From positions 60,001 to 92,000 of the forward strand of contig JAUWGH010000002.1 in the NCBI GenBank assembly GCA_030606485.1: DNA of 32,000 nucleotides. Reading direction: 5' to 3'. The stretch's first letter is position 1. The number at the start of each line of letters is the position of its first letter. This stretch comes from Promethearchaeota archaeon. GTDB taxonomy: Archaea > Asgardarchaeota > Lokiarchaeia > Sigyniarchaeales > SOKP01. The notes below the pieces were generated by a model. It saw nothing but the letters and a program-made list of their open reading frames with translations. It was not told the origin of the DNA and searched no databases. Below, piece by piece: positions 16,032 through 16,923 of this stretch. The position numbers and the translations under genes were made by a program.

Positions 16032-16923
16032 ATGAGTCAAAACAGTTTCGACCAATTTATCGGAAATGTAAATACAGAGAGAATCAAATACATAGCTGAC
16101 CCTCAGTTAAGAAATATCGTAAATGTAACAATTGCGTTAGGCAGACCTTTACTTGTTAAAGGGGAACCTGGAAATAGATTCTGAAAGTTCAGAATTTACC
16201 AGAGCGGGTAAAACTCTTCTGGCTCACGCGATTTCGGAAGCATTAGGGAAACGTCTTATTGTTTGGAATGTTAAATCAACCTCTGAAGGAATAGATGGGT
16301 GTTATATGTACGACACCGTTCAAAGACTTAATGATAGTCGATTTGGTTCAAATGATCGAAATGTTAATAATATAAAGGATTATATTACTTATGGTCCTTT
16401 AGGTGAAGCTTTTGATTCTAATGAACAAGTTGTTCTCCTCATCGACGAAATAGATAAAGCTGACATAGAATTCCCAAATGACCTCTTGCAAGAATTGGAT
16501 GTAATGGAATTTTATATCAAGGAAACTAAGGAGGTTATTAAAGCAAATTATCGTCCAATTGTCATAATCACTTCAAATAATGAAAAAGAGCTACCAGATG
16601 CATTTCTGAGACGTTGTGTTTTTCATTGGATTGAATTTCCTGAGAAGGATTTTATGGGACAGATTTGTCAATTACATTATCCAAATCTAAAAAGGAATAT
16701 TTTAATGCAATGTTTAAAGCAATTTTATGCACTTCGATCGTATAAACATCTTAGAAAAAAGCCCTCAACTTCAGAATTATTAGATTGGATTGGAGTTTTA
16801 TTGAAAAGTGGAATAACTGCTGATGATTTGGAAAAGGACATTCCGTTTTTGGGAGTTCTCATTAAGAAAGAACAAGATATGGAGTATCTCTCAAAACAAG
16901 CTGGTTTTTCTGTAAAGCCATAA
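16032..16923 (+). CDS. MoxR-family AAA+ ATPase, interrupted gene: join(16032..16173,16205..16923), 286 aa after intron removal
   Basis: Exon 1 (frame 3) MSQNSFDQF...NVTIALGRPLLVKGEPG; exon 2 (frame 1) GKTLLAHAI...YMYDTVQRLNDS...LLIDEIDKADIEFPNDLL (Walker B)...ITSNNEKELPDAFLRRC. Removing 16174-16204 gives GEPGTGKT. 142+719=861 nt. Confidence 0.9.
16174..16204 (+). other. Candidate 31-nt bulge-helix-bulge-type mRNA intron inside the Walker A codons
   Basis: Central 4-bp helix CTGG(16168-71)/CCAG(16199-202); 3-nt bulges AA^A (16172-74) and AG^C (16203-05); 10-bp intron stem TAGATTCTGA/TCAGAATTTA (one G-U) with AAGT loop. Cuts after bulge nt 2 restore the frame and the Thr codon ACG. Confidence 0.85.

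Follow-up and report, generated by a model that had tools for sequence, protein, structure and literature searches.

A 31-nucleotide bulge-helix-bulge-type insert, very probably a tRNA-type intron, in the Walker A motif of a MoxR-like ATPase gene of an Asgard archaeon

In a 32,000-nucleotide (nt) stretch of a Promethearchaeota genome, we analysed a gene for a MoxR-like AAA+ ATPase that is broken within its Walker A motif by a 31-nt insert (ATAGATTCTGAAAGTTCAGAATTTACCAGAG; 16174-16204, plus strand). The whole stretch is referred to here as the window (positions 60001-92000 of contig C1 of genome G000, which has 3.75 Mb in 13 contigs, 29% G+C and a completeness rating of 100%). We conclude that the insert is very probably a tRNA-type bulge-helix-bulge (BHB) intron that is cut by the tRNA splicing endonuclease EndA and rejoined by RtcB. 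The geometry of the motif, the agreement between its cut sites and the boundaries of the insert, its conservation in a second lineage, the presence of the enzymes and the occurrence of the same class of intron in the genome and the family are all established. The original prediction, made from the letters of this stretch, had proposed a tRNA-endonuclease-type mRNA intron in a non-cbf5 gene of a probable Asgard archaeon, to be checked by intron-less moxR alleles, DNA support for the 31 nt, stem covariation among homologues and further BHB motifs at apparent frameshifts. Boundaries, conservation and machinery now argue for this reading, and related contigs are labelled Promethearchaeota or Promethearchaeia (Loki type).

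The first exon of the gene (16032-16173, plus strand) starts at the ATG at 16032, comprises 47 codons and the first base of a Thr codon, and ends ...GGG GAA CCT GGA A. Its product, MSQNSF...LVKGEPG, can be aligned to the start of the intact orthologous proteins. Read straight on, this frame continues as ...LVKGEPGNRF (RPLLVKGEPGNRF) to a TGA stop at 16182-16184, and the remainder of the protein (...AGKTLLAHAI..., TRAGKTLLAHAI) lies in a second frame that ends at the stop at 16921-16923. The second exon (16205-16923, plus strand) runs from CG GGT AAA ACT to this TAA and, from ∼16229 onwards, has 94-97% nt identity to the orthologue in the relative G003. Excision of 16174-16204 gives a single AAA+ open reading frame (ORF) of 286 amino acids (aa) with the motif GEPGTGKT, whereas moving the start of the deletion 1-3 nt earlier gives GEPGAGKT; the Thr is obtained only when exactly 16174-16204 is removed. 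Neither exon contains any other frame-breaking lesion. The two frames, the 286-aa product and the GAGKT alternative had all been derived in the original prediction, and each was reproduced from the sequence.

The boundaries of the insert were determined by comparison with uninterrupted alleles. A search of 60 relatives and a species-representative genome collection returned ∼108 orthologous loci, three of them from the same genus, and every one that reaches the site encodes an uninterrupted GEPGTGKT (CCTGGAAC(N)GGT). The same-genus alleles read GAGCCTGGAACT GGTAAAAC (CCTGGAACT GGT), as in the intron-less allele of G003 (…GAGCCTGGAACTGGTAAAACC…), whereas this genome reads GAACCTGGAA[31 nt]CG GGTAAAAC (CCTGGAA[31 nt]CG GGT). 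The predicted spliced junction, GGA-ACG-GGT (GAACCTGGAACGGGTAAAACT), is equal to the GGA-ACN-GGN of the intron-less alleles. Comparison of alleles thus delimits the insert without recourse to RNA structure, and its ends are the cuts expected from the BHB rule, 16173/16174 and 16204/16205. The sought intron-less moxR alleles were therefore found, with their junction exactly at the BHB-rule cut. An apparent internal stop in the orthologue of G049 was considered as a further intron and rejected, as it is the natural C-terminus.

The insert and its flanks can be folded into a relaxed BHB motif. The exonic strand of a 4-base-pair (bp) central helix (H5, CTGG, 16168-16171) pairs with an intronic strand (H3, CCAG, 16199-16202), and each strand is followed on its 3′ side by a 3-nt bulge, so that the two bulges lie on opposite strands. 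The 5′ bulge (AAA, 16172-16174) has its predicted cut after 16173 (AA^A) and the 3′ bulge (AGC, 16203-16205) after 16204 (AG^C), each equal to a boundary of the insertion. Directly after the 5′ bulge comes a well-formed flanking helix, the intron hairpin (16175-16198), whose 10-bp stem (16175-16184 with 16189-16198, including one G-U pair) is closed by the loop AAGT. Stem, helix, loop and bulges were exactly as first described when the sequence was re-read. The minimum-free-energy fold of 141 nt reproduces the CUGG/CCAG helix, bulge and stem, and an isolated 56-nt segment folds at −15.2 kcal/mol (z = −2.9; 1 of 200 shuffled sequences was equally stable). No second copy of the intron occurs in the window and a 181-nt query spanning it matched only its own locus in the genome; it is therefore not a repeat in this genome.

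The MoxR intron is not unique to this genome, since a divergent lineage carries it at the same site. Metagenomes were scanned with a pattern in which the exon context was fixed and the interior of the insert was free, and two JGI contigs (L290 and L291) were recovered with a MoxR orthologue of 66% nt identity over 2.3 kb. Both have a 31-nt insert at the identical site, with CTGG, AAA, CCAG and AG^C invariant. In the hairpin of L290, 12 of 24 bases are changed, including all four of the loop, yet 10/10 stem pairs are kept, through two double changes (C-G to U-A and G-C to A-U) and three wobble changes. These two sequences thus provide the stem covariation that had been sought in moxR homologues. 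Across the intron, 30/30 cells are paired, compared with 27-50% when the partners are slid. The L290 orthologue has a second clean BHB insert of 30 nt (GATT AA^T ... GATC AA^A), which restores QRL/NDSRFG (here and below, a slash marks the junction). A strict BHB solution was sought for a third interruption near DKADIE/FPNDLL and none was found. On L290 (minus strand, ∼2500-3450 of the reversed contig), a single MoxR gene therefore has three interruptions, two of them clean BHB.

The search for further BHB motifs at apparent frameshifts, as proposed with the original prediction, returned inserts in dnaG and in genes for a ychF-like GTPase, GH38 and a B12 mutase subunit. With one in uppS, this genome contains at least five further inserts that are of BHB type by their sequence. 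The dnaG intron (32 nt, C2 142590-142621; GGGC AA^A ... GCCT AA^A) restores GAIFGQ/TEGLL, and the 30-nt intron of GH38 (C7 23173-23202) combines CGTG AA^A, an 8-bp stem and CACG AT^T. In the ychF-like GTPase gene, removal of 47 nt (AGGG AA^A ... CCCT AA^A) gives LIGVVGK/PSSGKSTFLN, and in the gene for the B12-binding mutase subunit a 32-nt intron (GCAT AG^A, 10-bp stem, ATGC TC^A) gives KPGI/DGHWRGG, which includes the DxHxxG motif. The uppS insert (30 nt, C1 ∼489533-489562, minus strand) is in frame with a stop, restores DGN/RRW and forms just three of the four pairs of the central helix (ACGG/ACGT); a second, uninterrupted uppS is present on C7 at ∼104366. Introns of this class are 29-47 nt long. 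A G+C-rich 4-mer followed by AA closes most of the 5′ exons, and the inserts are located within the most conserved motif of each protein (P-loop, DxHxxG, DGNRRW). The genome gave one match each for dnaG and the GTPase gene. Separately, ARAGORN reports introns in 24 of the 38 tRNA genes of this genome, several of them at non-canonical positions.

Several of these inserts have persisted through speciation. The sister species G001, of the same genus, was covered for 1.87 Mb (56%) of its genome, and is colinear at 88.5% nt identity. It also has the dnaG, GTPase and mutase introns, with the exons intact. Between the two species the dnaG intron is unchanged, the mutase intron differs in H3 (ATGC to ATGT, G-C to G.U), and the GTPase intron is 45 nt long compared with 47 nt, with a diverged interior and a conserved helix and bulges. 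Among relatives, the dnaG intron is present at 16 of 30 loci (L229-L258; 29-40 nt, in several genera), and the 14 loci lacking it read GGN-CAR/ACN-GAR. In an alignment of the 16 copies (14 distinct sequences), 100% of the cells of the exon-intron helix are paired, and the pair that involves the Gly wobble base occurs as CG (6), AU (3), GC (2), UG (2) and GU (1). Overall pairing is 99.2%, against 93.1% in shuffled alignments (0/500), the covariation score is 0.241 against 0.122 (0/500), and slid controls pair at 14-47%. An internal GCC...GGC hairpin capped by a UUCG-like loop recurs in many of the dnaG introns. The GTPase intron is found in 5/5 members of the genus, and in G004 its stem is different yet complementary. 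In another genus, g6 (L275 and L279), a separate 31-nt BHB insert lies 6 nt further along the GTPase P-loop; the P-loop of the ychF-like GTPase has been interrupted twice independently, in two genera. Interrupted genes that stay intact across speciation, together with a selected exon-intron helix, are hard to explain without RNA splicing.

A census that was blind to structure recovered the same class. Alignment of 1.71 Mb to G001 yielded 342 indels of 10-150 nt, of which 51 were at least 18 nt long and at sites within long open frames. We retained those where the empty allele was open, the filled allele was broken, the flanks were at least 75% identical and the site was away from the gene end. 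Two inserts survived, each of them a perfect BHB and each in this genome: that of MoxR, with a 10-bp inner stem, and that of GH38, with one of 8 bp. As controls, non-coding indels and antisense strands were evaluated 303 times; a 4/4 helix with an inner stem of 3 bp or more occurred in 12 cases, a stem of 6 bp or more in one and of 8 bp or more in none. The two sister species therefore show no background of random gene-breaking insertions.

The genome encodes the enzymes presumed to process a relaxed motif, namely an alpha-beta type EndA and an RNA ligase. It has two EndA-family proteins, alpha (199 aa; C10 66737-67336) and beta (206 aa; minus strand, 670247-670867), and an RtcB with a 495-aa open frame. 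The catalytic Y...H...K context is found in the 199-aa protein, which aligns with the C-terminal (catalytic) repeat of fused EndA models; its 206-aa counterpart lacks the His, aligns with their structural N-terminal repeat and has weak hits to beta subunits. Kaneta et al. (2018, PMC5829648) report an (alpha-beta)2 EndA in Asgard archaea, with an L1 loop that gives it broad specificity towards relaxed motifs. In the proposed mechanism, exonic CUGG in the pre-mRNA would pair with intronic CCAG, flanked by the AAA and AGC bulges, with the 10-bp hairpin closing the intron side. The alpha-beta EndA would then cut after the second base of both bulges, and RtcB would ligate the exons to GGA-ACG-GGT, giving an intact Walker A motif (GEPGTGKT) and the 286-aa protein. 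We infer this cutting and ligation of the MoxR-like mRNA from the sequence features described above.

Several observations weigh against an active spliced intron. The outer exon-exon helix consists of a single pair, C16167-G16206, followed by A.G and A.G, which places the 3′ cut site in a poorly defined bulge. The stable outer helix of the strict hBHBh' motif, the type that alpha4 and alpha'2 EndA require, is absent. Owing to this near-absence, the MoxR motif belongs to the relaxed class, not the strict BHB, and would need an enzyme of broad specificity; the original prediction had also noted the weak helix and called the motif relaxed. The isolated 56-nt fold favours an exon-exon pairing, ACCUG/CGGGU (16166-16170 with 16205-16209), which might be a competitor of the BHB conformer or a surrogate outer helix. 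For covariation in the MoxR intron, 131 of 500 shuffles reached the observed score, a control that has no power with just two sequences. Genome-wide scans returned no excess. A generic scan for a central 4-bp helix and an inner stem of 5 bp or more (insert length 18-150; 292,682 candidates), with the added demand that cutting joins two open frames, gave counts for true cuts equal to those of shifted-cut controls at every threshold, the signal being swamped by same-strand gene boundaries and AT-rich hairpins. When 89,754 hairpins were instead used as anchors and the helix offsets d5 and d3 were each varied from 0 to 8, the resulting geometry matrix had no clear peak at the BHB cell (14 vs ∼10.7 with at least 3 G-C pairs), and the rate of ORF joining was ∼10% in every cell. 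We take this to mean that the BHB class is small, a handful to tens of inserts and not hundreds. Furthermore, the other members of the class were first noticed by readers who were seeking BHB motifs. No RNA run was listed with this stretch, and three RNA runs from a related study contained next to none of its sequence words. Finally, the allele is recent in this genome, so the copy could be newly imported and unspliced.

These points bear most directly on the proposal that the MoxR-like gene is dead or dying, i.e. that an imported 31-nt hairpin insertion inactivated it, that the BHB shape is chance or the relic of a mobile element, and that the mRNA is never repaired. The recent arrival of the allele by recombination, the nearly absent outer helix and the lack of RNA support for splicing would all fit such a gene, and its loss may be tolerable, because it is not universal (the AAA+ orthologue was matched in 43 of 61 relatives). 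We nevertheless regard this as improbable. The insert persists at the same site in a lineage of 66% identity, with compensatory stem changes and intact exons, and the imported exon 1 is conserved at the protein level, with no further frame-breaking lesion in either exon. Moreover, the 1.7-Mb comparison of sister species reveals no background of random gene-breaking inserts, and introns in single-copy dnaG and GTPase genes have been kept across genera.

A further alternative is translational bypassing, in which the insert stays in the mRNA and its 31 nt are skipped by the ribosome, in the manner of phage T4 gene 60 and the byp elements of yeast mitochondria. The inserts described here are like byp elements in their size (∼30-50 nt), their hairpin, the early stop after the would-be take-off region and the number of coding genes affected. 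However, there are no matching take-off and landing codons, since GGA (16170-16172) has no cognate triplet before GGT at 16207, and a hop would yield GEPG-GKT or require AGA or GCG as the landing site. In addition, the conserved feature is a covarying 4-bp exon-intron helix with 3-nt bulges, which EndA needs and bypassing does not. Bypassing is therefore a very remote prospect.

An assembly or sequencing artefact, which might be suspected because the genome is metagenome-assembled, is refuted for practical purposes by an identical 179-nt contig of depth 59 from run X6 of a study other than that of the probable source (16110-16288, zero differences), by a Logan contig of SRR25383457 that is identical over 16020-16260 with the same gene order (possibly from the source sample), and by the homologous insert in two JGI contigs. 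The X6 contig also supplies the DNA support for the 31 nt that had been proposed as a check. This lineage occurs in cold-seep and marine-sediment samples (runs X1 and X6). Runs X2, X7 and X16 yielded only short divergent pieces over the gene and are uninformative either way.

The tRNA-type BHB intron of the MoxR-like gene does not appear to be a de novo gain in this genome, but was probably imported on a foreign tract. Matches of G001 to window positions 12301-13628 and 16047-18228 lie ∼44 nt apart in that genome and ∼2.4 kb apart in this one. Sliding identity between this genome and G003 is 0.73-0.79 in 16049-16228 and 0.92-1.00 from 16229 on, while identity between G003 and G001 is steady at 0.93-0.98. 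For exon 1, identity to sampled loci does not exceed ∼80%, and that to the metagenomic lineage with the intron is 68%. From this profile of divergence, exon 1, the intron and an adjacent endonuclease-like gene seem to have arrived together from an unsampled divergent donor. The tract, which we place at approximately 13629-16228 (no strand assigned), would be ∼2.6 kb long and carried in by recombination, and would comprise a LAGLIDADG ORF, exon 1 with the intron, and the first ∼25 nt of exon 2, with its right edge ∼25 nt past the intron. Although ∼28% of the bases of exon 1 differ from G003, only 6 of 47 residues do. A ratio of non-synonymous to synonymous substitution (dN/dS; 30 synonymous vs 9 non-synonymous codon changes on the branch of this genome) was considered as a sign of selection after the gain and rejected, because most of the changes represent divergence between donor and recipient; as they lie in the imported tract, they show only the constraint on the donor allele.

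The LAGLIDADG ORF (14044-15927, plus strand; 627 aa) is a free-standing homing-endonuclease-like gene that ends 104 nt upstream of the MoxR start and is not found at this place in G001. It has a weak match to Pfam LAGLIDADG_3 and matches the endonuclease region of the intein model NF038162 (E = 1.9e-10). A paralogue of 25% identity is located at C12 3767-6277, with no obviously broken gene beside it (by eye, among ORFs of at least 90 aa). In P0002 (ENA ERZ24794679), a 70%-identical homologue is followed by a 50-aa ORF, equal in length to the exon-1 ORF here, and then by opposite-strand NosD-like genes instead of the remaining AAA gene.

The GH38 intron is also specific to this genome and lies on a comparable tract (C7 21018-23244), with an upstream segment of ∼2 kb that contains two ORFs for MscS-like membrane proteins. 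Identity along this tract is 0.79-0.83 until ∼40 nt past the intron and 0.97 beyond. As a tentative suggestion, more doubtful than not, BHB micro-introns of Asgard protein genes may spread horizontally as DNA, by gene conversion at or next to a site in a conserved motif, with the MoxR intron as a case of collaborative homing. If so, the target of the LAGLIDADG protein would be Walker A DNA that lacks the intron; the donor allele would be shielded by its own copy, and the endonuclease gene would be converted during repair along with the intron and exon 1. In favour of this, each of the two recent gains (MoxR and GH38) lies within a foreign tract of at least 2 kb, 25-40 nt from its right edge, introns occupy the most conserved motifs, and the GTPase P-loop was hit independently in two genera. 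Against it, no endonuclease gene is present on the GH38 tract or near the metagenomic intron-bearing MoxR. As the GH38 tract lacks one, a role for a homing endonuclease is hypothetical and confined to MoxR.

Downstream of the interrupted gene is a partner gene for a 411-aa VWA_CoxE-domain protein (16978-18213, plus strand; Pfam PF05762, E = 3.8e-10), and the order of the two is kept in relatives and in L292. Pfam AAA, AAA_2 and AAA_5 match exon 2, and the intact G003 orthologue is nearest to the NCBIfam MadB family AAA ATPase (105 bits, against a cut-off of 475). Given the AAA/AAA_5 matches and the adjacent VWA_CoxE gene, 'MoxR-like' is a fair label, in line with the MoxR assignment made at the outset. 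Gene callers applied to the Logan contig split the AAA+ gene into ORFs of 50 and 256 aa.

In full-text searching, the only BHB introns found in coding sequences were those of crenarchaeal cbf5 (PMC2738675), and reference lists to 2025 (PMC12397907) cite none beyond cbf5. A preprint of October 2026 on Asgard introns deals with tRNA genes only and leaves the route of arrival open (bioRxiv 10.64898/2026.10.13.758758); the signature of recombination tracts offers a testable lead on that question. With at least six protein-gene BHB introns in one Asgard genome, and that of dnaG kept across genera by compensatory change, endonuclease-dependent splicing of mRNA would, if this is true, be routine in the closest archaeal relatives of eukaryotes. 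Since gene callers split or truncate such genes, Asgard proteomes and metabolic reconstructions would be expected to hold false pseudogenes.

The closest known system is the cbf5 intron of Crenarchaeota (Aeropyrum, Sulfolobales and Desulfurococcales; Watanabe 2002; Yoshinari 2006; Yokobori 2009, PMC2738675), which is likewise short and in coding sequence. As with the MoxR intron, its BHB is often relaxed, its removal is attributed to a hetero-oligomeric endonuclease, and its distribution among relatives is patchy, with gain and loss. The MoxR intron falls outside the cbf5 lineage, as it resides in an AAA+ ATPase gene instead of cbf5 and in the Asgard phylum; splicing of cbf5 was shown experimentally, whereas that of the MoxR intron is predicted. 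Unlike cbf5, at least six such introns are found in this one genome, with two or three in a single gene in the L290 orthologue, and they interrupt the best-conserved motifs (P-loop, DxHxxG, DGNRRW). The BHB introns of archaeal tRNA and rRNA genes (bioRxiv 10.64898/2026.10.13.758758; Marck and Grosjean 2003) have the same motif, cut rule and presumed enzymes (EndA and RtcB), and resemble those described here in size and in their repeated lineage-specific gains. In contrast to these, the substrate here would be an mRNA, in which the exonic helix strand is constrained by codons, covariation passes through wobble positions and excision must restore the reading frame. For the arrival of the intron, a parallel is the psbA intron of cyanophages, reportedly described in 2009 by Zeng, Bonocora and Shub as undergoing collaborative homing with the free-standing endonuclease F-CphI. 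The likeness is that a free-standing endonuclease-like gene stands beside a conserved site broken by a tiny, ORF-less intron, and that gene and intron share a co-transferred tract that ends just past the intron. The psbA intron differs in being a self-splicing group I intron for which cleavage of the intron-less site has been demonstrated, whereas here the endonuclease is putative and the second recent gain, in GH38, has no endonuclease gene on its tract.

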